Origin: a virus
Taxonomy: Duplodnaviria; Heunggongvirae; Uroviricota; Caudoviricetes
Length of the DNA: 19,137 bases
IMG/VR virus record: IMGVR_UViG_2690316028_000003
Location: 1 to 19,137 of that record
Strand: one strand, 5' to 3'
In this document: positions 1,141 through 19,049 of the stretch, piece after piece
How positions within the stretch are numbered: the first letter of the stretch is position 1
How the letters are laid out: each line of letters starts with the position of its first letter
Notes under the pieces: model-generated
The model's database searches: none
What the model was told of the DNA's origin: nothing
What the model saw: the letters and a program-made list of their open reading frames with translations, nothing else
Position numbers and translations under genes: made by a program

Positions 1141-1583
1141 GACTGCACTCCTTTGCGAATTTGGTAGGCATGGACGCGCATTATGTCGATTGCCTTCGAT
1201 GTGACAGGATGCTGATGGTTCATCATCGCAATGACTGTGTTAATCGCTGAATCCACACCCTGCGCCCGCACTTCAGCCAGGAAAGCGTCGGTGGCTGGGG
1301 TTTCTAACTTCTTGGTGGTTGTATCAAACTCAAACAACTTAACCACGTCATCAAACAGGACATAATCGCCATCAGGATCTTCAGTCATGTCAGCGCCACA
1401 ATCCTGACCGAACGAGTCGCAACCATCAATATCAAGCTCGTATCGCTTAAGGTTTGCGATATTTGATAAATTCAACGCCAGTACAGCAAGGTCATAAACC
1501 TCGTCAACGGTATACCCTGCACCATGCCCATACATTTCAATGCGCGATATGATTTCTTCTACTCGTTGTTTTGTGATTGTCAT
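1137..1583 (-). CDS. hypothetical acidic protein (148 aa)
   Basis: ORF track; start ATG overlaps stop of the HNH gene 1580..2284; no recognised domain. Confidence 0.6.
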   Translation of the reverse strand: MTITKQRVEEIISRIEMYGHGAGYTVDEVYDLAVLALNLSNIANLKRYELDIDGCDSFGQDCGADMTEDPDGDYVLFDDVVKLFEFDTTTKKLETPATDAFLAEVRAQGVDSAINTVIAMMNHQHPVTSKAIDIMRVHAYQIRKGVQS

Positions 1584-2284
1584 TTTTGATCACATCCTTT
1601 GCGAAGCTGGGCATCGGTATTGATGCGACTAAAATAGAATCCGAATACTTTCTTCCATGGCTTAACAACAGCGTCCCTGATTGAGTTTGGGTTAAATCCA
1701 GCCTCGATGGCCTGTTTGCTGTCAAAGAACACATACCCAAAACCTTCCTCGTTCTCAGCGCAGACTGGACCTTTATACGATCCGTGTTTTCTTCCCCCGG
1801 CCAGACCTGTTCTATATGCGTGCTGAGTGTTGCCCGCTACCGTCGTCCACTCCAGGTTTGAAACATCATTGTTTTGTTTATTCCCGTCTATATGGTTAAT
1901 TACGTGCTCATCAGAAGGCTTAGGGCCGAGAAAGTTTTCAGCAACTAATCGGTGGATGTTCACGCCTTTTAGTTTTCCTTCAAGCTCCAGCCTAACGAAT
2001 AAATACTGATTTCTGTTCTTGCCGCGCATGGTTGGGTTTAATTGCTTTAGTTCGCCAGAGGCCAATGAGAAAATGAGCCCCTTTGAGGTGATGAAATAGC
2101 GATACTTAAAACCAAAAATCTCTTTCACATCGCCAAATAAGTCAGCCAGCGCCGCGCACTTGGCCTCCGCTTCAGCAAATTTACGCACCAGATATTCAGC
2201 GTTTGTTTCGTTAACCTTTAAGTCTCGCGGGATGCATTTTCCTTTCAGAAATCCATCCATCTCAATTAGTGACATTTGTTTCAT
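1580..2284 (-). CDS. HNH homing endonuclease (NUMOD4-like N-terminus plus HNH_3 domain)
   Basis: Translation contains [24 protein letters not shown] (NUMOD4-like) and [11 protein letters not shown]...[19 protein letters not shown] (HNH_3 motif H..N..DN....NLE); embedded by ATGA overlaps between neighbours. Confidence 0.75.
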
Positions 2285-2787: not shown

Positions 2788-3270
2788 TTATTTGATAAGA
2801 AGTGAAGGTTTCCCAACTTTGAGTTGAGCGCCGGGGATATTTATTCCTGCTTTTAGTTGGTGTTTGATTGCCAGTTTGTCGGCTTTAATTGTCGTTTCAA
2901 ACTCAACGTATTCAGGAGGAAGGGCGCTTGAGTCGATTATTTCTACAATTTCTGACGGTTTGCGGATTGTTACCTGGTGAATACCTGCTCGAATATTTTT
3001 CTTGCCAACCATTTCAAGCGATGACGCTATATATGATTTGATGCTGTCAATCTTATTTTGGATTACTGCGGCTCGCTCATTCAGTGACTTTGCCTCTTCC
3101 TTGAGGCGTTCAGCATAACCAGATTCATTTTTAATGACGGAAAGAAGTTGCTCTATTTTATCGGTAAATTCTCCTTCCATGCCTTCTATTGTGTCAGCAA
3201 TCATCTCTGGTTCTAAATCTGAATCCATCAATTTTGCGTATTCATTGGCAATTTCATACAGTTTGCTCAC
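2788..3270 (-). CDS. Siphovirus Gp157-family protein (RecT-associated, function unknown)
   Basis: ORF track frame 2788..3276; family assigned from recalled similarity and position immediately downstream of recT; likely start is GTG at 3270 preceded by GGAGG 6 nt upstream (track start at 3276 is TTG). Confidence 0.55.
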   Translation of the reverse strand: MSKLYEIANEYAKLMDSDLEPEMIADTIEGMEGEFTDKIEQLLSVIKNESGYAERLKEEAKSLNERAAVIQNKIDSIKSYIASSLEMVGKKNIRAGIHQVTIRKPSEIVEIIDSSALPPEYVEFETTIKADKLAIKHQLKAGINIPGAQLKVGKPSLLIK

Positions 3271-4168
3271 TGGCAACCTCCAGTTTCGCTTTGCATTCTA
3301 TGTAAATGGCTTGTACGTTCTGCTGCAATTTCATTCCAGACGTCAGGCGATATGCTTCTGCAAAATATCGCTTCAAATCATCCATGTTTTCTGCCTGAGC
3401 CATTTCATCGCAAAGAAGTTGTACTTTATCCATTATTTCCTGCTGGCGTTTCCGTTCATCTTCGCGGATATCTTCCTCTGATTTGTGCGGCATAACTGGT
3501 TCAGTCCACACACCTTCTTCTTCGTTTAGTACGTGAATAGCACTATCAAGACGTGATGCCTTAGGCCAATACTTGCTTGCACGCTTTACGACCGTCTTTC
3601 GCGCCATCTCATTCCAGTGATTTACCCATGGTCCTTTATCGCTGAATGCCGCCTTGCTTGTTTTCCTTACAGCCTCAATTTCAGCCAGACTCATCTCTTC
3701 CGTTAGATAATCACCTGCTGGCGTCTTAACTGTGCAGTAAACGCCAACGATATCACCACGATCACCGAAGGCGTTGTATTTATGGGTTGGTGCTTTATCA
3801 AGCCCGTTTGACTCATAGGTATCGTTAGCATGAACAAGTTTTGCCTGACCCCATGAGATAACACCAGACTCCATTGCAATATGGAGCAATCCCATATAGC
3901 TGATATCAAGGCAAACCATGCCGTCGCGCGGAACCAGATAAGCCAGTTTGCTGGCCGGGTTTAAGGTGATGCCGATCGCCGCAACGTTGATGATAGCGTT
4001 CTGTGCGCTGGTCGGATTTGCCAGTGCTGTTTTAGCCAGGTAATCATTTTTCTGGAAATACTGAATTGCAAACTGGCTTTCCTTAGCCCATGTGACTGAT
4101 TGGTCTGTAACCGCCCCAACAAAGAGCGGCTCTTGCTGTTTAACGAACTCAACAATGCTCATGCTCAT
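3254..4168 (-). CDS. recT: RecT-family single-strand annealing recombinase
   Basis: 304 aa; segment ...KGPWVNHWNEMARKTVVKRASKYWP matches the conserved RecT core (GPWV.HW.EMA.KT...R..KY.P) as I recall it from E. coli Rac RecT; sits in the bet position downstream of gam. Confidence 0.85.
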   Translation of the reverse strand: MSMSIVEFVKQQEPLFVGAVTDQSVTWAKESQFAIQYFQKNDYLAKTALANPTSAQNAIINVAAIGITLNPASKLAYLVPRDGMVCLDISYMGLLHIAMESGVISWGQAKLVHANDTYESNGLDKAPTHKYNAFGDRGDIVGVYCTVKTPAGDYLTEEMSLAEIEAVRKTSKAAFSDKGPWVNHWNEMARKTVVKRASKYWPKASRLDSAIHVLNEEEGVWTEPVMPHKSEEDIREDERKRQQEIMDKVQLLCDEMAQAENMDDLKRYFAEAYRLTSGMKLQQNVQAIYIECKAKLEVASEQTV

Positions 4169-5082: not shown

Positions 5083-6051
5083 TTAGTAGGTTATTTTTGT
5101 TGCGAATACTTCGCCTTTTACGATGGCTGTTATGATATTTTTAGCAACATCTTCTGATGCGCCAACCTTGATAAGGTCAGCAAGTATTTTGTTATTTACT
5201 TCTTTCCGGTGAGCTTTATCCTTTGCTCTACGCTCTTCTTCTTCCTTGATTCTTTTTTCTTCTGCTATTCTGGCTTGCTCTTTTGCTTCAGCCTCGCGCC
5301 TGATTCGTTCAGCCTCCTCCTGTGCTTTTCGGCGTTCTGCTTCAATTGCCGCCTGCTTTTCTCTTTCAGCTCGTTCTGCTGCCTCTTTTGCTTCGCGCTG
5401 TGCTCGTTGCTCGGCTTCAATGCGTTCACGCTCTGCACGTTCCGCTGCGGCCTTAGCTTCTGCTTCTCGCCTTGCTGCTGCTTCAATTTCGGCTTTTGCC
5501 TTTGCTTCGGCTTCTGCTCTGGCTTTCTCTTCAGCTTCTCTTTTTAAGCGTTCTTCATGCTCTCGCTTTTCCTGCTCCGCTTTGAGTCTTGCCTCTTCTC
5601 TTTGGCGGTCAAATTCGCGATCCATCAAAAACGCTATTTCATGGTCAGACTCAATTTGCTTTGCGAGAGCTTCAGCTGCTGCCTTAGCTTCTTCTTCGGC
5701 TTTAATCCGCGCCTGTTCTTCCTCATAATCAGTAAGAGGCTGGCGCGCCTTGGCTTTCAGTTCATCAAGGCGATCGCGCACTGTCTTGCGGTTAGCATCA
5801 ATTAGCTTTGGAATTTCCTTCAGTTCAGCAACAAGGTCTTTGCCAAGACCATCGAGATATGTTTTCGTCTGCGCAACTTTATACGCCAGAGAAGCGATCT
5901 CCTTTCTGCCCTTTGCCGTTGTGATATCAGGCACAAAGGACATAACTTCACGTTCAACCTTTTGAAGGATTTCTTCAATCTGGTCGGCAGACTGAAATAC
6001 AGTCATTGCATTTGCTTTTTCAATAACAACTAAATCTGTTACTTCACTCAT
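5083..6051 (-). CDS. hypothetical protein with about 170-aa E/A/R/K-rich charged helical (SAH/coiled-coil-like) central segment
   Basis: ORF track 322 aa; GGAGGA SD upstream of ATG 6051; central region is REAEEKARAEAEAKAKAEIEAAARREAEAK...; globular N- and C-terminal ends. Confidence 0.65.
   Translation of the reverse strand: MSEVTDLVVIEKANAMTVFQSADQIEEILQKVEREVMSFVPDITTAKGRKEIASLAYKVAQTKTYLDGLGKDLVAELKEIPKLIDANRKTVRDRLDELKAKARQPLTDYEEEQARIKAEEEAKAAAEALAKQIESDHEIAFLMDREFDRQREEARLKAEQEKREHEERLKREAEEKARAEAEAKAKAEIEAAARREAEAKAAAERAERERIEAEQRAQREAKEAAERAEREKQAAIEAERRKAQEEAERIRREAEAKEQARIAEEKRIKEEEERRAKDKAHRKEVNNKILADLIKVGASEDVAKNIITAIVKGEVFATKITY
5230..5700. repeat. low-complexity imperfect short repeats (gcttc/ctgc-rich) encoding the E/A/R/K segment
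   Basis: Visible short-period repetition on the plus strand; produces spurious Cys/Phe/Ser-rich plus-strand ORFs (5209..5547, 5246..5728). Confidence 0.5.
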
Positions 6052-10184: not shown

Positions 10185-11557
10185 GACAGGATATCGAAGC
10201 GAGCGTTATCGGTGGCCTGCTGATTGGTGGATTAACGCCAACCGCCAGCGACGTTCTGGCAACGCTGGAGCCGGAAGCGTTTTCAATTCCGCTCTACCGG
10301 AAAGCCTTCGAGGTTATCCGCAAGCAGGCGAGAAACAGAAACCTAATCGATGCGCTGATGGTTGCCGAGGCGTGCGGAGAGGAGCATTTCACGTCAATCC
10401 TGATGACCAGCAAAAACTGCCCGAGTGCCGCAAACCTGAAGGGATATGCCGGAATGGTCGCGGATAACTATCACCGCCGTCTGGTGCTGGAAATCATGGA
10501 TGAAATGCGTGAACCAATTCAGAGCGGAACCATCGACGCATCGAGTCAGGCGATGGATGAACTTGTAAAGCGTCTCTCAGCCATCAGAAAGCCCCGTAAC
10601 GAGGTTAAACCGATACGGTTAGGGGAAATCATCACTGACTACACTGACACGCTTGACAGGCGTCTGAGGAACGGAGAAGAGTCAGATACCCTGAAGACCG
10701 GAATCGAAGAACTTGACGCCATCACCGGAGGGATGAACGCGGAAGACCTTGTGATAATCGCTGCTCGTCCTGGTATGGGGAAAACCGAACTGGCGCTGAA
10801 GATTGCCGAAGGCGTTGCAAGCCGCGTTATTCCTGGTTCTGACGTCCGGCGCGGGGTATTGATTTTCTCAATGGAAATGAGCGCATTGCAGATTGCAGAG
10901 CGAAGCATTGCCAACGCCGGGAGGATGTCGGTTAGCGTACTGCGAAATCCTGCATCGATGGATGACGAGGGCTGGGCACGTGTTGCTAACGGCATGAGTC
11001 AGCTTGCAGATTTGGATGTATGGGTAGTCGATGCCTCGCGGTTATCGGTCGAAGAAATACGCTCAATCGCAGAACGGCACAAACAGGAAAATCCAAACCT
11101 GTCACTCATCATGGCGGATTATCTTGGCCTGATTGAGAAGCCGAAAGCAGACCGCAACGACCTTGCAATTGCTCACATCTCCGGAAGCCTGAAGGCGATG
11201 GCGAAAGACCTGAAAACGCCTGTTATCTCCCTGAGTCAGCTTTCGCGCGATGTTGAGAAGCGACCAAACAAACGCCCGACAAACGCAGATTTGCGTGATT
11301 CAGGAAGCATTGAACAGGATGCAGACTCAATCATCATGCTCTATCGGGAAGCGGTATATGACGAGAACAGTAGCGCCGCGCCATTTGCTGAAATCATTGT
11401 GACGAAAAACCGTTTTGGCTCGCTTGGTACGGTTTACCAGCGGTTCTGCAACGGACACTTTGTTGCATGTGACCAGGATGAAGCCAGACAGATTTGCACA
11501 ACATCAAATGCACCCGCTGCACGTGGCAGACGATATGCACAAGGGGCTGACGTATGA
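10181..11557 (+). CDS. DnaB-family replicative DNA helicase (P22 gp12-like)
   Basis: 458 aa; Walker [10 protein letters not shown]; DnaB-like N-terminal domain; ATG overlaps O stop (ATGA). Confidence 0.85.
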
Positions 11558-11658
11558 CCATCTACATCACTGAGCTAATAGCAGGGTTATCGTTACTAAT
11601 GGTTCTTACTGTATATATTATTAAGTATATTCTTTATGCGAATAAAAAAACTAATTGA
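11554..11658 (+). CDS. possible small hydrophobic membrane peptide (34 aa)
   Basis: Manual translation [34 protein letters not shown]; ATG overlaps helicase TGA (ATGA); one predicted TM helix with a basic C-terminus; overlaps the start of the next HNH gene in another frame. Confidence 0.2.
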
Positions 11659-12247
11659 TCACGATGAGCTTCTGTCAACATTATCATATGACTCAGAAAC
11701 AGGAATATTTAAATGGCTAAAAACAAATTCAGTAGTAAGAGTAAAAGGTAGTATTGCTGGAGGTGTTAGTGGTGGTTATATATGCATTAGCATAAATAAT
11801 GTTTTGTATTATGCGCATAGACTTGCTTGGTTCTATGTATACAAAAAATGGCCTCCTAAGTTTATTGATCATGTAAATGGGAACAGACTTGACAATAGGA
11901 TTTCAAATCTAAGACTGGCAACAGAAGAGCAGAATGCAAGAAACATTGTAGGGAATAGATTAAACACATCCGGTGCAATTGGAGTGTCTTGGTATAAGCC
12001 AACTGGCAGGTGGAAGTCTTATGTTGGTTATAAAAATAAGACAATATCGTTAGGGTATTTCGATAGCAAAGAAGATGCAGCATTCATAGCAGCACTAGCA
12101 AGAAAGAAACTATATGGAACTTATGCGAGTAAAGCACTTAATTGCGAGCATGAGCTTTTATCTCAATTTAATAATGATGAGGATAAACTTGCGGAATATC
12201 TTAAGGAAAAATCTAAAAGGACTCGAAATCGTGTTAAAAACAGATAA
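11636..12247 (+). CDS. HNH homing endonuclease (HNH_3 plus AP2-like DNA-binding domain)
   Basis: YYAHRLAWFYVYKKWPPKFIDHVNGNRLDNRISNLRLATEEQN (HNH_3) then GVSWYKPTGRWKSYVGYKNKTISLGYFDSKEDAAFIAA (AP2-like); visibly AT-rich compared with the flanking helicase and ninB; no clear SD. Confidence 0.75.
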   Translation: MRIKKLIDHDELLSTLSYDSETGIFKWLKTNSVVRVKGSIAGGVSGGYICISINNVLYYAHRLAWFYVYKKWPPKFIDHVNGNRLDNRISNLRLATEEQNARNIVGNRLNTSGAIGVSWYKPTGRWKSYVGYKNKTISLGYFDSKEDAAFIAALARKKLYGTYASKALNCEHELLSQFNNDEDKLAEYLKEKSKRTRNRVKNR

Positions 12248-12279
12248 AGGCCTGCTGGTAATCGCAGGCCTTTTTATTT
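12248..12279 (+). terminator. intrinsic terminator (tR2-like) between the replication module and nin region
   Basis: Stem aggcctgc/gcaggcct (8 bp), 8-nt loop, then TTTTTATTT. Confidence 0.65.
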
Positions 12280-12295
12280 GGGGGAGAGGGAAGTC

Positions 12296-12736
12296 ATGAA
12301 AAAACTAACCTTTGAAATTCGATCCCCAGCACATCAGCAAAACGCTATTCACGCGGTGCAGCAAATTCTTCCAGACCCAACCAAGCCAATCGTAGTGATC
12401 ATTCATGAGCGCAACCGCAGCTTAGACCAAAACAGGAAGCTATGGGCCTGCTTAGGTGACGTCTCTCGTCAGGTTGAATGGCATGGTCGCTGGCTGGATG
12501 CAGAAAGCTGGAAGTGTGTGTTTACCGCAGCATTAAAGCAGCAGGATGTTGTTCCTAACCTTGCCGGGAATGGCTTTGTGGTAATAGGCCAGTCAACCAG
12601 CAGGATGCGTGTAAGCGAATTTGCGGAGCTATTAGAGCTTATACAGGCATTCGGTACAGAGCGTGGCGTTAAGTGGTCAGACGAAGCGAGACTGGCTCTG
12701 GAGTGGAAAGCGAGATGGGGAGATCGGGCTGCATGA
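12296..12736 (+). CDS. ninB: NinB (Orf-family recombination mediator)
   Basis: From ATG 12296: MKKLTFEIRSPAHQQNAIHAVQQILPDPTKPIVV...ARLALEWKARWGDRAA, near-identical to lambda NinB; track start 12278 is an upstream TTG. Confidence 0.9.
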   Translation: MKKLTFEIRSPAHQQNAIHAVQQILPDPTKPIVVIIHERNRSLDQNRKLWACLGDVSRQVEWHGRWLDAESWKCVFTAALKQQDVVPNLAGNGFVVIGQSTSRMRVSEFAELLELIQAFGTERGVKWSDEARLALEWKARWGDRAA

Positions 12737-13095
12737 CTATCAAATCAAATACGGCAGCGTCAGATAGGTATCGGCTTATTGAGGATTATCTGTATTTAGA
12801 CGGAGATACAGTCAGATACAAAAAGGACTCGCTAAAACACCCCAACCACAGCCACCGGGCCGGAGATGAAATTAAAACATCGATAAATGGATCTGGGTAT
12901 AGACAGGTGTGTTTTGCAGGCATTCAGATGTTTGTTCACGTAGTTGTTTTTGCGCTGCACAACAAAAGAATGCCATTGAAAAATATTGACCATATTAACG
13001 GAAACAGGCTGGACAATTCCCCAAAAAATCTTAGGGAGGCAAGCCGGATAGCAAACAGCCGAAATCAGAAAACTAAGTTCAATAGCCGTTCTTGA
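12733..13095 (+). CDS. HNH endonuclease, HNH_3 domain only; an in-frame TGA separates it from an AP2-like domain that continues to 13260
   Basis: From ATG 12733 (overlaps ninB stop): MTIKSNTAASDRYRLIEDYLYLDGDT...VHVVVFALHNKRMPLKNIDHINGNRLDNSPKNLREASRIANSRNQ; after TGA at 13093..13095 the same frame stays open for 54 codons ([54 protein letters not shown]). Confidence 0.6.
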   Translation: MTIKSNTAASDRYRLIEDYLYLDGDTVRYKKDSLKHPNHSHRAGDEIKTSINGSGYRQVCFAGIQMFVHVVVFALHNKRMPLKNIDHINGNRLDNSPKNLREASRIANSRNQKTKFNSRS

Positions 13096-13256
13096 ATAAA
13101 AAATGTTTTATGGAACAAGCAAAAAAATAAATGGGCCGTTCAAGTGCGCACAGATTTTGGCCGGTTGCATTTTGGGTTCTATGAAGATCTTGAGCTTGCT
13201 GGTTTGGTTGCCAGTGAGGCTATCAACAAATATCACGGACAATATGCGAGGGTTGA

Positions 13257-13787
13257 ATGATTAAGCATAAATCAGAAACACCAAAAGAAGTTAGAGACTG
13301 CTGGCAAACGCCGCTCTGGCTTTTTGATGCACTGGATATTGAGTTTGGATTCTGGCTGGACTCAGCTGCGAGCGACAAAAATGCTCTGTGCGCTCACTGG
13401 CTAACTGAGGCCGACGACGCGCTCAATTCTGAGTGGGTAAGCCACGGTGCAATCTGGAATAACCCACCGTACAGCAATATCAGGCCGTGGGTGGAAAAAG
13501 CCGCTGAGCAGTGCATACAACAGCGACAGACGGTAGTTATGCTTGTGCCAGAGGATATGTCAGTCGGATGGTTCAGCAAGGCTCTGGAGAGTGTCGACGA
13601 AGTTCGCATTATCACTGATGGACGGATTAATTTTATCGAACCATCGACAGGGCTGGAGAAGAAGGGAAACAGCAAAGGCTCAATGCTGCTGATTTGGCGA
13701 CCGTTCATCAGTCCTCGACGAATGTTTACTACCGTATCCAAAGCGGCATTGATGGCGATCGGGCAGGGCGTCAGGAGGGCGGCATGA
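13257..13787 (+). CDS. phage Dam-like DNA N6-adenine methyltransferase
   Basis: 176 aa; [18 protein letters not shown]...[10 protein letters not shown] (NPPY catalytic motif IV); ATG overlaps the upstream stop. Confidence 0.8.
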
Positions 13788-13960
13788 GGCGACAGCGACG
13801 AAGTATCACCGACATCATCTGCGAAAACTGCAAATACCTTCCAACGAAGCGCTCCAGAAATAAATGCAAGCCAATCCCAAAAGAATCTGACGTAAAAACC
13901 TTCAACTACACGGCTCACCTGTGGGATATCCGGTGGCTAAGACATCGTGCGAGGAAATGA
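13784..13960 (+). CDS. ninE: NinE
   Basis: From ATG 13784 (ATGA overlap with the methyltransferase stop): [58 protein letters not shown], near-identical to lambda NinE. Confidence 0.85.
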
Positions 13961-14361
13961 CAATGGATTATTCACAGTTAAGTGATTTTGAAATTAACGT
14001 GGCGGTATTCGAAGCCATTCATAACGGATCACCGGATTACAAAGAAGGTGAGAATGGCGATATGGTGTTTGTCTCATTTGAGGGAGACATTGTAAACGGA
14101 GACGCAGTTGAAGTAGAAGTTGAGCGCGGATCCTTTAACCCATGCGCAAACCCAGCAGACGCATGGCCGATCATCACTGAAAACAAAATTAGCACCATGT
14201 GGATGACAGCGGAAAAAGAATGGTGCGCATGGTCAGGAGGTGATTTAGAGGAAGGTTGTTGGGAATGGGAAAATATTCCTGGCTACTACTTCTGCGGTGA
14301 ATCTCCACTCCGCGCCGCCATGATTGTATTTCTCATGATGCAGGACGCCAATAATGCTTAG
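13957..14361 (+). CDS. ninX: NinX-like protein
   Basis: From ATG 13957 (ATGA overlap with ninE stop); sits between ninE and ninF as ninX does in P22; Cys/Trp-rich C-terminus; family assignment is from recall. Confidence 0.5.
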
Positions 14362-14530
14362 CCCATCCCAATCCCTTCAATACCAGAAAGAAAGCGTCGA
14401 GCGAGCTTTAACATGCGCTAACTGCGGTCAGAAGCTGCATGTGCTGGAAGTTCACGTGTGCTCCGATTGCTGCGCAGAACTGATGAGCGATCCGAATAGC
14501 TCAATGTACGAGGAAGAAGACGATGAGTGA
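14354..14530 (+). CDS. ninF: NinF
   Basis: Manual translation [58 protein letters not shown], near-identical to lambda NinF; below ORF-track size cutoff. Confidence 0.85.
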
Positions 14531-15314
14531 GTTAATGAATGGCAATGCCATCAAAATGACAAGCATTGAAATCGCTGAGTTGGTAGAAAGCCGCCATAGC
14601 AATGTAAAAGTATCCATAGATAGATTGGTGAAACGTGGCGTTATCAAGCCTCCTGCATTGCAGCACACTAACATAATCAATGATTTAGGTGTTATTACCG
14701 GGAAGCGTGATTTCTACGTCTTCGAAGGCGAACAAGGAAAGCGAGACAGCATTATTGTCGTCGCCCAGTTGTCGCCAGAGTTCACCGCTCGCCTTGTTGA
14801 CCGCGGCGCGGAAAACGTCGAGCGCCTGGAGCTGATTACTATGCCTTGGTTCCGGGCTGTGCGAGGAAACCATGAGCAGATGATGATTGATGGGCTATCG
14901 GAGTATGGGAACGTCAATCACTGGTTGGCAAATGGTGGCGGCTGGTTCTTCAATCTCGACTATGACAAAGAAGTGCTGGCTAAGGCTCTGGTTCACAAAG
15001 CAGCTGAGCTGCCACTCGTCATCGAGCTGGTTACCGCTGAGCGTAAAATCGTTATCTGCCACGCTGACTACCCGCATAACGAATATGCGTTCGATAAGCC
15101 CATCCCGAAAGATATGGTCATCTGGAATCGAGAGAGGGTTAGCGACGCACAGGACGGCATTGTATCGACGATAGCCGGTGCTGATCTGTTTATCTTCGGC
15201 CACACCCCAGCGCGCCAGCCCCTGAAGTATGCCAACCAGATGTACATCGACACCGGCGCCGTGTTCTGCGGAAACCTCACGCTGGTAAAGGTGCAAGGCG
15301 GTGAACATGCGTAA
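14523..15314 (+). CDS. chimeric protein: Rha/antirepressor-like N-terminal segment fused to lambda Ser/Thr phosphatase (NinI) C-terminal region lacking motif I
   Basis: Residues from about 93 ([34 protein letters not shown]...FIFGHTP...[21 protein letters not shown]) closely match lambda phosphatase residues about 52..221; N-terminal 90 aa ([25 protein letters not shown]...) carry no GDxHG motif and the GD of GDxxDRG is replaced by AR. Confidence 0.7.
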
Positions 15315-15948
15315 ACCATCCCGCCGTAAGTGCAAAGTATGCGGGGAATACTTCGTGCCGAAATTCCACGATATCCGGATCCGCTGGTGCAGCCCGGAGC
15401 ACGGCGCAATCCTCGCGATGGAAGAACGTCAAAAGGAGAAGGTGAAAGCCGCTGCTAAGCGCATTAAGGAGCAGAAGGAGGCAGAGAAGGCCGGGCGCAA
15501 ACGCCGCAAGGAGAGGCTGGCAGAGCTACGCCCAGCAGGTTACTACAAAGCGCAGGCTCAGCAGGCATTCAACGCCTACATCCGTGCGCGCGATGCTGAT
15601 TTGCCATGCATCAGCTGCGGAGAGACCAACCCGCCAGATCTGCATGGCGGCCAATGGGACTGCGGCCACTTCAAAACAGTAGGTGCTTACCCTGAACTGC
15701 GCTTTGAAGAGCGCAATGCCCATAAGCAGTGCAAATCCTGTAATGCCGGAGCGGGCAAATATACCGCCAAAGAGGCGACGGTAGCGCAGCAATACGAAGC
15801 TGGTCTGGTCGCTCGTTACGGGCAGGAGTACGTGGACTGGCTCAACGGCCCCCACGAAATGACCAACTACCGCCGTGAAGACTTCATTCGGATCCGCGAT
15901 GAATACCGCGCCAAGCTCAAAGCACTGAAACAGTGGGAGGCCGCATGA
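15307..15948 (+). CDS. ninG: NinG/Rap recombination-associated endonuclease
   Basis: [16 protein letters not shown]...WCSPEHG...[27 protein letters not shown]...HKQCKSCN...; matches lambda NinG motifs ([35 protein letters not shown]); track start 15301 is GTG. Confidence 0.85.
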
Positions 15949-18578: not shown

Positions 18579-19049
18579 ATGACCCAGCATATTGGCGTAA
18601 AACTGATTAACGCCTTTCCGATGACGAGACAGGCATATAACGATTTTCGTGGCTGGCAGCTTCCTGCCGGAGAAAACGGCGAGGATGAAGGCTATCTGGT
18701 TGAATATCTTGATGGCGGAAAACCTAACACCGATCGCTTTGATGGCTACGTTAGCTGGAGTCCAAAAGAAGTATTCGAAAAGGCTTATCGTCCGGTATCA
18801 GGGCTAAGTTTCGGCCTTGCCATTGAAGCGCTCAAGTTGGGGAATAAAGTTGCCCGTGCTGGCTGGAATGGTAAGGGGATGTATCTGTTCATTATCCAGC
18901 AGAATGCTTGGGGGTTTGAGTGTGACCTGGACGGAGTTAATGGCCTTGTGACGCTGCCATGCATTTGCATGAAGACAGCGGACGATAAATTAGTACCGTG
19001 GCTGGCTAGTCAGACTGATGTTCTAGCAGAAGACTGGCAAATCATTTAA
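18579..19049 (+). CDS. hypothetical late accessory protein with DUF2829-like (Tad2-like) C-terminal domain
   Basis: 156 aa; C-terminal GLSFGLAIEALKLGNKVARAGWNGKGMYLFII...KTADDKLVPWLASQTDVLAEDWQII resembles DUF2829 as I recall it; N-terminal about 70 aa unassigned; follows a terminator with weak SD. Confidence 0.55.
   Translation: MTQHIGVKLINAFPMTRQAYNDFRGWQLPAGENGEDEGYLVEYLDGGKPNTDRFDGYVSWSPKEVFEKAYRPVSGLSFGLAIEALKLGNKVARAGWNGKGMYLFIIQQNAWGFECDLDGVNGLVTLPCICMKTADDKLVPWLASQTDVLAEDWQII

Follow-up and report, generated by a model that had tools for sequence, protein, structure and literature searches.

An open reading frame (ORF) in a lambdoid prophage of Escherichia coli is an in-frame hybrid of two phage genes, joining the N-terminus of Roi, the Rha-type protein of phages HK022, HK97 and mEpX2, to the body of a phi80-type NinI/Ppp phosphatase. 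The gene lies in a stretch of 19,137 nucleotides (hereafter the window; IMG/VR virus record IMGVR_UViG_2690316028_000003) that makes up all 19,137 bp of contig LLYK01000100.1 (E. coli draft assembly GCA_001484375.1) and covers the early and late-control region of the prophage. The ORF encodes 263 amino acids on the plus strand and occupies exactly the positions, 14523-15314, named in an earlier reading of the same DNA (the original prediction). That prediction had proposed that a recombination junction joined a DNA-binding or antirepressor-like N-terminus to a phosphatase without motif I, and the proposal is borne out: both parents can be identified and the crossover maps to 12 nucleotides. 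The likely explanation, and the best one overall, is that two lambdoid phages recently underwent illegitimate recombination at a short homology and that the gene marks the joint, carried as a neutral passenger with a dead phosphatase remnant. The finding is less exotic than first proposed, as the hybrid is a newly recognised singleton of a well-known kind, the short-homology mosaic joint, and no new system or mechanism.

To locate the parents, we compared the interval from ninF to the start of ninG by megablast with 50,697 phage records and 5,426 complete E. coli genomes. Window positions ~14354-14808 match ninF and roi of mEpX2, HK542, HK97 and HK022 at 96-98% identity, and positions 14792-15400 match ppp and rap (ninG) of phi80 at 92% and of a prophage in E. 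coli ABWA45 at 99.7%; no record in either collection covers at least 80% of the query. The two matches meet in a 12-nucleotide sequence, CCTTGTTGACCG, that roi and ppp have in common and read in the same codon phase, which is why the product is in frame, with the translation start of roi and the stop of ppp. Outside the 12-mer, the parents are unrelated in both directions (Table 1), and the exchange was therefore neither homologous nor homeologous. No longer exact match exists between roi and ppp, or between the wider parental nin regions of ~2.3 and 2.8 kb, and only 3.4% of codon-shuffled roi sequences share at least 12 nucleotides with ppp.

The flanks of the joint follow the same two parents. 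From 14804 to ~18560 the window is 96% identical to the late-control and lysis region of phi80 (the phi80 prophage of DH5alpha-type strains), and 61 genomes cover at least 80% of this flank; the left flank, 11000-14791, is contiguous in genomes such as E. coli Br_190_kylling. The 5′ end of ppp (146 nucleotides), the 3′ end of roi and the genes that follow roi in mEpX2 have no blastn match elsewhere in the window, which argues for a simple crossover and rules out an insertion or duplication that left the missing halves elsewhere in the window. Laboratory phi80 contamination is an unlikely source of the right half, because the segment from ppp to ninG is 92% identical to phi80 and 99.7% identical to the prophage of a wild wastewater E. 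coli.

The phosphatase-derived segment retains most of the parental enzyme but lacks motif I and the first Asp of motif II. It differs from the ABWA45 ppp gene at two nucleotides, and its protein sequence is identical at 172 of 173 residues to ABWA45 Ppp, at 161 of 173 to phi80 Ppp and, in a pairwise alignment from LVDRG onward, at 134 of 170 to lambda NinI. Searching the PDB with phmmer aligns hybrid residues 90-260 with residues 49-219 of the lambda phosphatase chain (1g5b, E = 1.5e-92), and residues 91-262 fall in the NinI family of PHROGs (E = 2.7e-79), in agreement with the predicted lambda phosphatase match over the C-terminal ~170 residues. Motifs GNHE (G115-N116-H117-E118), ICHAD (H180), GHTP (H227) and IDTGAVF are all kept, as are the counterparts of lambda D52, R53, N75, H76, H139, R162, H186 and D202 (D93, R94, N116, H117, H180, R203, H227 and D243, respectively). 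By contrast with lambda NinI and phi80 Ppp, with which it shares GNHE and the equivalents of H139, R162, H186 and D202, the hybrid has no motif I. The first 49 parental residues are gone, lambda D20 and H22 have no counterpart, and motif II reads A-R-L-V-D-R-G, placing Arg90 where the enzyme has the bridging ligand D49. Neither the protein nor a six-frame translation of 14300..15400 contains GDxHG, so that a motif I hidden in another register or frame is ruled out and the predicted loss of GDxHG and of the first Asp of GDxxDRG stands. The match to the domain profile is also reduced. Intact parental Ppp matches Pfam Metallophos (PF00149) over residues 15-187 with 55.8 bits (profile positions 3-188), whereas the hybrid scores 21.7 bits against a cut-off of 21.5 and aligns to profile positions 40-188 of 191 only. 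The break in Ppp therefore falls inside the Metallophos domain and not at a domain boundary, and it deletes the first strand-helix-strand unit, the bearer of motif I.

Mutational data on a homologous enzyme indicate what these losses would mean. The lambda phosphatase site holds two Mn ions by histidines, aspartates and an asparagine, and the homologous CthPnkp requires seven side chains, among them Asp187, His189 and Asp233 (Keppetipola and Shuman, PMC2190708). Asp187 and Asp233 are strictly essential for every activity assayed, with the activity of D233A and D233N too low to measure (PMC2190708). Because CthPnkp Arg237 and His264 are published as the equivalents of lambda Arg53 and His76 (PMC2190708), Asp233 corresponds to D49; by motif position, Asp187 and His189 are the predicted counterparts of D20 and H22. 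With the equivalents of D20, H22 and D49 all missing, the phosphatase remnant is almost certainly catalytically inactive, and the suspicion of a catalytically dead protein in the original prediction is well supported. The absence of all three protein ligands of metal site 1, including the bridging Asp, and of the first strand-helix-strand unit indicates that the remnant is probably also poorly folded. Such a loss need not be costly to the phage. Laboratory lytic growth does not require the nin region. For this reason, and because the physiological substrate of the lambda enzyme is not known (PMC2190708), loss of the phosphatase would be easily tolerated.

The N-terminal ~93 residues are unrelated to the phosphatase and come from Roi. 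Over 281 nucleotides this segment differs from mEpX2 roi at five positions (98% identity), and 91 of its 94 residues are identical (97%). PHROGs places residues 3-94 in the Ant/anti-repressor family (phrog_63, E = 5e-17), and Pfam Phage_pRha gives a weak, sub-threshold match at residues 12-38 (17.3 bits). Intact Roi is likewise sub-threshold for this profile (24.8 versus 29.9). The description of the N-terminus as Rha-like is thus correct as to type, and can be made more exact as Roi of the HK022/HK97/mEpX2 kind. Intact mEpX2 Roi has a Phage_pRha domain at residues 12-100 and an ANT/KilAC domain (PF03374) at residues 127-229 (E = 3e-32); the break replaces the last ~7 pRha profile positions, the linker helix that follows LVDR and all of the KilAC domain, and no KilAC domain was found in the chimera or anywhere in the window. 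Modelled by AlphaFold with 39 native homologues, residues 1-93 give a confident structure (mean predicted local distance difference test score (pLDDT) 84.6), ordered as a strand, two helices, a beta hairpin and two helices, the last of which (85-92) runs into the joint. The model is suggestive of a winged-helix DNA-binding fold, and the Roi domain of the hybrid may still fold and bind DNA. Roi reportedly binds a site inside its own gene that adjoins an IHF site, a result that goes back to Clerget and Boccard in 1996. DNA binding by Roi and the link to IHF are also cited, at second hand, in PMC3430580.

No search for a second copy of the fusion found one. An exact-sequence look-up among about 15 billion proteins finds the hybrid on one contig, the window itself, which is listed in two samples, presumably the GenBank and RefSeq copies. 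Among 6,803 close homologues, none scores above an ordinary 222-residue phosphatase, and phmmer against 1.84 billion cluster representatives finds no protein that matches both halves. The junction 28-mer ACCGCTCGCCTTGTTGACCGCGGCGCGG has no match in metagenome and viral contigs, and a degenerate junction-peptide pattern has none in species-representative genomes or in metagenome and viral contigs, with the control returning one match, in the window. These searches for a homologue of the same architecture rule out a conserved family that combines a Rha-type N-terminus with a phosphatase C-terminus, and the fusion is a singleton in every collection searched.

Although this fusion is unique, comparable ones are not. 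An independent in-frame protein of 162 residues joins Roi(1-107) to NinH (P0157; E. coli GCA_025377025.1, contig ABIKQP010000007.1, L006 3001-3489). Like the hybrid it keeps the Roi N-domain, occupies the same genomic slot (between ninF and Q) and has a short-homology joint, here a ~13-nucleotide imperfect similarity (AAACG.TACC.GA). Unlike the hybrid it looks like an intra-phage deletion, with the roi 3′ end, gp66 and rusA removed, rather than an inter-phage exchange, and its partner, the small helix-turn-helix protein NinH, is nearly full length. Phosphatase remnants without motif I also occur in sporadic chimeras: in a 457-residue protein (P0258) DnaB helicase runs in frame into NinI at a shared '(L/V)DYDKE'-type stretch, equivalent to loss of the entire nin region, and two further remnants follow a CysK-like (P0317) and a Cca-like (P0299) N-terminus. 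Separately, roi is frequently damaged in E. coli prophages, as in a Roi that lacks an internal in-frame stretch between two AVN-coding repeats (P0145) and a frameshifted, N-domain-only Roi of 148 residues found on 262 contigs including E. coli W (P0153). As accidental fusions and rearrangements of these kinds (P0157, P0145, P0153, P0258, P0317 and P0299) are not rare, a one-off, unselected origin is the default reading of the hybrid.

We propose that an HK97/mEpX2-like phage (...ninE-ninX-ninF-roi...) and a phi80-like phage (...ninE-ppp-ninG-Q-lysis...) underwent a single illegitimate recombination event. The exchange would have taken place at the 12-nucleotide identity that encodes LVDR in roi and ppp alike, giving a recombinant that derives from the left parent as far as Roi residue ~93 and from the right parent beginning at Ppp residue ~50 and continuing across ninG, Q and the lysis genes. 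The hybrid would be translated from the roi start, with the ppp stop coupled to ninG. What was selected, or merely tolerated, would be the viable mosaic phage, which retains a junction resolvase (NinG replacing RusA), Q with its cognate late region and the lysis genes, and the hybrid ORF would be its passenger in the dispensable nin region. The joint may have been helped by the phage's own RecT or by a resident RecET-type system. A RecT-family single-strand annealing recombinase is encoded beside Gam in the window and would be a candidate catalyst. RecET promotes recombination at sequences of 5-13 bp at a rate of about 1e-8, and lambdoid mosaics owe about as much to illegitimate as to homeologous recombination (Martinsohn et al., PMC2327257); Rad52-like recombinases, phi80 RecT included, drive mosaic formation (De Paepe et al., PMC3945230). 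As in the novel joints of lambdoid mosaics described by the Hendrix-type model, the hybrid switches abruptly between blocks of at least 96% identity, with no diverged 'shoulders' and with microhomology at the crossover. Most surviving mosaic joints lie at gene or domain boundaries. The hybrid departs from this pattern in that its joint lies at the end of a domain in Roi but within the catalytic fold of Ppp, and yet it is in frame. With parents identifiable at 98-99.7% and a crossover resolved to 12 bases, it is a very clean natural example of phage mosaic formation, and it supports the idea that illegitimate joints at short homologies form everywhere and that, in the dispensable nin region, some of those inside genes persist.

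Several points weigh against reading the gene as a recombinational passenger with a dead phosphatase and a surviving Roi domain. The evidence consists of one contig of one short-read draft assembly. Both halves are nearly identical to their intact relatives (five and two nucleotide differences), and with an event so recent neutrality is indistinguishable from selection. An unbroken, in-frame ORF with translational coupling at both ends is also what a functional gene would show. DNA binding by the Roi N-domain is suggested by family annotation and earlier literature, and Foldseek found no significant PDB match to the N-domain model (best E = 0.098), the top non-significant matches being MarR, RacA and MerR winged-helix DNA binders (E ~0.1, template-modelling (TM) score 0.3-0.4). 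A single-sequence AlphaFold model of the whole chimera (pLDDT 32.6) is uninformative on folding and stability. Alignments of mixed Roi and phosphatase homologues were misaligned by MAFFT and were not used for structure prediction, and a phosphatase-only alignment spread the GDLHG of the homologues over the Roi domain and was set aside as biasing any model.

That the fusion is found on a single 19-kb draft contig and nowhere else raises the question of an assembly or library artefact, in which HK97-like and phi80-like prophages of one strain were falsely joined. Several lambdoid prophages are common in E. coli, with up to 6-10 matching places per genome. However, the two sequences share only 12 bases, well below the k-mer or overlap length of an assembler, with parents 13-24% identical beyond the joint, and the contig has no Ns and no break. 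The joint is moreover in frame and at the best available microhomology, a signature of biological short-homology recombination, and comparable joints occur in other independent assemblies. We regard a false join as improbable.

A functional protein is another alternative to an accidental passenger. The Roi domain could act together with the metal-poor scaffold as a new regulator or pseudo-phosphatase, with the scaffold serving as a phospho-ligand binder or oligomerisation module, or the hybrid could be a dominant-negative competitor of full-length Roi from co-resident phages. The uninterrupted ORF has native translation signals at each end, nearly all of the Roi N-domain is present (residues 12-93 of 12-100) and is predicted to fold alone, and the phosphate-contacting residues D93, R94, N116, H117, H180, R203, H227 and D243 are among those kept. 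Roi belongs to the class of AriS-like regulators, which combine a variable N-terminal domain (AntA/B, Bro-N or pRha) with a conserved C-terminal KilAC domain, so that N-terminal domain types alternate on KilAC in Ant/AriS-like homologues, and the activities of the two AriS domains are separable (PMC9043618). N-domain-only Roi variants also persist widely, such as the frameshifted 148-residue form described above. The half that the hybrid has lost relative to Roi is KilAC, which in the Listeria homologue AriS holds the SOS-inhibiting activity (PMC9043618). Set against a functional protein, no homologue of the same architecture exists among the 1.84 billion representatives or the 6,803 close homologues. 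The breakpoint lies within the phosphatase fold, other phosphatase chimeras without motif I are equally sporadic and have unrelated partners, and there is no indication of selection. The new regulator offered as an alternative in the original prediction is thus unsupported, the fusion being a singleton and too recent for selection to be read, and we consider it unlikely. The specific case of a working neo-protein, in which the Roi domain tethers the metal-depleted phosphatase scaffold to the DNA site of Roi or titrates the partners of Roi and so alters lytic growth control, is very improbable; if true, it would capture in nature the first step by which domain shuffling creates a DNA-targeted pseudo-phosphatase.

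Residual catalysis, such as a mono-metal phosphodiesterase activity through site 2 (N116, H180 and H227), is very improbable, because although all three non-bridging site 2 ligands, the general-acid His117 and both Arg residues are kept and His189 (lambda H22) is dispensable for the Mn-dependent phosphodiesterase activity of CthPnkp (PMC2190708), the strictly essential equivalents of Asp187 (D20) and Asp233 (D49) are both missing (PMC2190708), as is the whole N-terminal strand-helix-strand unit, and Arg90 puts a positive charge at the position of the bridging carboxylate.

Table 1. Coordinates, strand and supporting evidence for the hybrid gene, its parts and other features of the window.
Feature	Position	Strand	Evidence or identity
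Chimeric ORF roi'::'ppp, 263 aa (amino acids)	14523..15314	+	ORF list
Roi segment, aa 1-94, N-terminal Rha-type putative DNA-binding domain	14523..14803	+	mEpX2 roi comparison
Crossover interval, 12-nucleotide identity CCTTGTTGACCG, encoding L-V-D-R	14792..14803		Three-way base comparison
Gene start to shared 12-mer			98% identity to mEpX2 roi, 13% to ABWA45 ppp
After shared 12-mer to gene end			24% identity to mEpX2 roi, 99.6% to ABWA45 ppp
Ppp/NinI segment, aa 91-263 (parental aa 50-222), metallophosphatase body	14792..15314	+	ABWA45/phi80/lambda comparison
ninF, 5′ neighbour, in left HK97/mEpX2-like parental block	14354..14530	+	Pfam NinF; contiguous with roi in mEpX2, HK97 and HK022
ninG/rap, 3′ neighbour, in right phi80-like parental block	15307..15948	+	Pfam NinG
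RecT-family single-strand annealing recombinase, beside Gam	3257..4168	-	Pfam RecT E = 3e-32, Gam E = 1.5e-50
recT, gam, kil, cIII, N, cI		-	
cro, cII, O, dnaB-type P, ninB, dam, ninE, ninX, ninF, chimera, ninG, phi80-type Q, holin, lysozyme, Rz (in order)		+	

The surroundings of the hybrid are those expected from its two parents. Its start codon is that of Roi and overlaps the ninF stop as in roi of HK022, HK97 and mEpX2, where roi likewise comes after ninF. An 8-nucleotide overlap links the stop of the hybrid to the ninG start, as between ppp and rap in phi80 and ABWA45. Gene order in this region varies among lambdoid phages, being ninF-ninG-ninH-ninI-Q in lambda, ninF-roi-gp66-rusA-ninH-Q in mEpX2 and ybcN-ninE-ppp-rap(ninG)-…-Q in phi80 and ABWA45. 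The roi gene lies directly 3′ of ninF in mEpX2, HK97 and E. coli Br_190_kylling, and in the last of these ninF is followed by a full-length KilAC-domain antirepressor (roi) and then directly by ninG. The position of the hybrid between ninF and ninG, which had been noted as a departure from lambda, is real but no anomaly: in one parent type the gene after ninF is roi, in the other the gene directly before ninG is ppp, and the lambda order ninG-ninH-ninI is one variant.

Three separate HNH_3 endonuclease ORFs are encoded within the 19 kb, at 1583-2284 (-), 11636-12247 (+) and 12733-13095 (+). Two of them lie on either side of ninB, and one carries an additional AP2-like DNA-binding domain. All three resemble free-standing homing endonucleases, which could promote recombination here through the double-strand breaks that they make. 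Directly after Rz, at the end of the phi80 homology, a 156-residue ORF (18579-19049, +) matches Tad2 anti-Thoeris structures over residues 75-156 (PDB 8sme, E = 3.8e-17; Pfam Tad2-like, E = 9e-27) and carries an additional ~74-residue N-terminal extension; the gene is a probable anti-defence 'moron', the term for accessory genes inserted among those of the phage core. Between cIII and the N region, a 322-residue ORF (5083-6051, -) has no Pfam match, and its equivalent is named 'cell envelope biogenesis protein TolA' in some E. coli genome annotations.

The hybrid is also a hazard for annotation. Its NCBI entry (WP_060617281.1 / KUH06516.1) bears the name 'Rha family transcriptional regulator', which hides the phosphatase remnant, and domain-based pipelines could equally name it a Ser/Thr phosphatase despite the three lost metal ligands. 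The 90%-identity cluster to which it belongs is represented by a 144-residue phosphatase fragment, making the chimera invisible at the cluster level. A related effect is seen in phrog_171, which is annotated as NinG/Rap and matches the phosphatase part of the hybrid at profile positions 273-446 (E = 2.4e-8), and which evidently includes fused NinI-NinG members.

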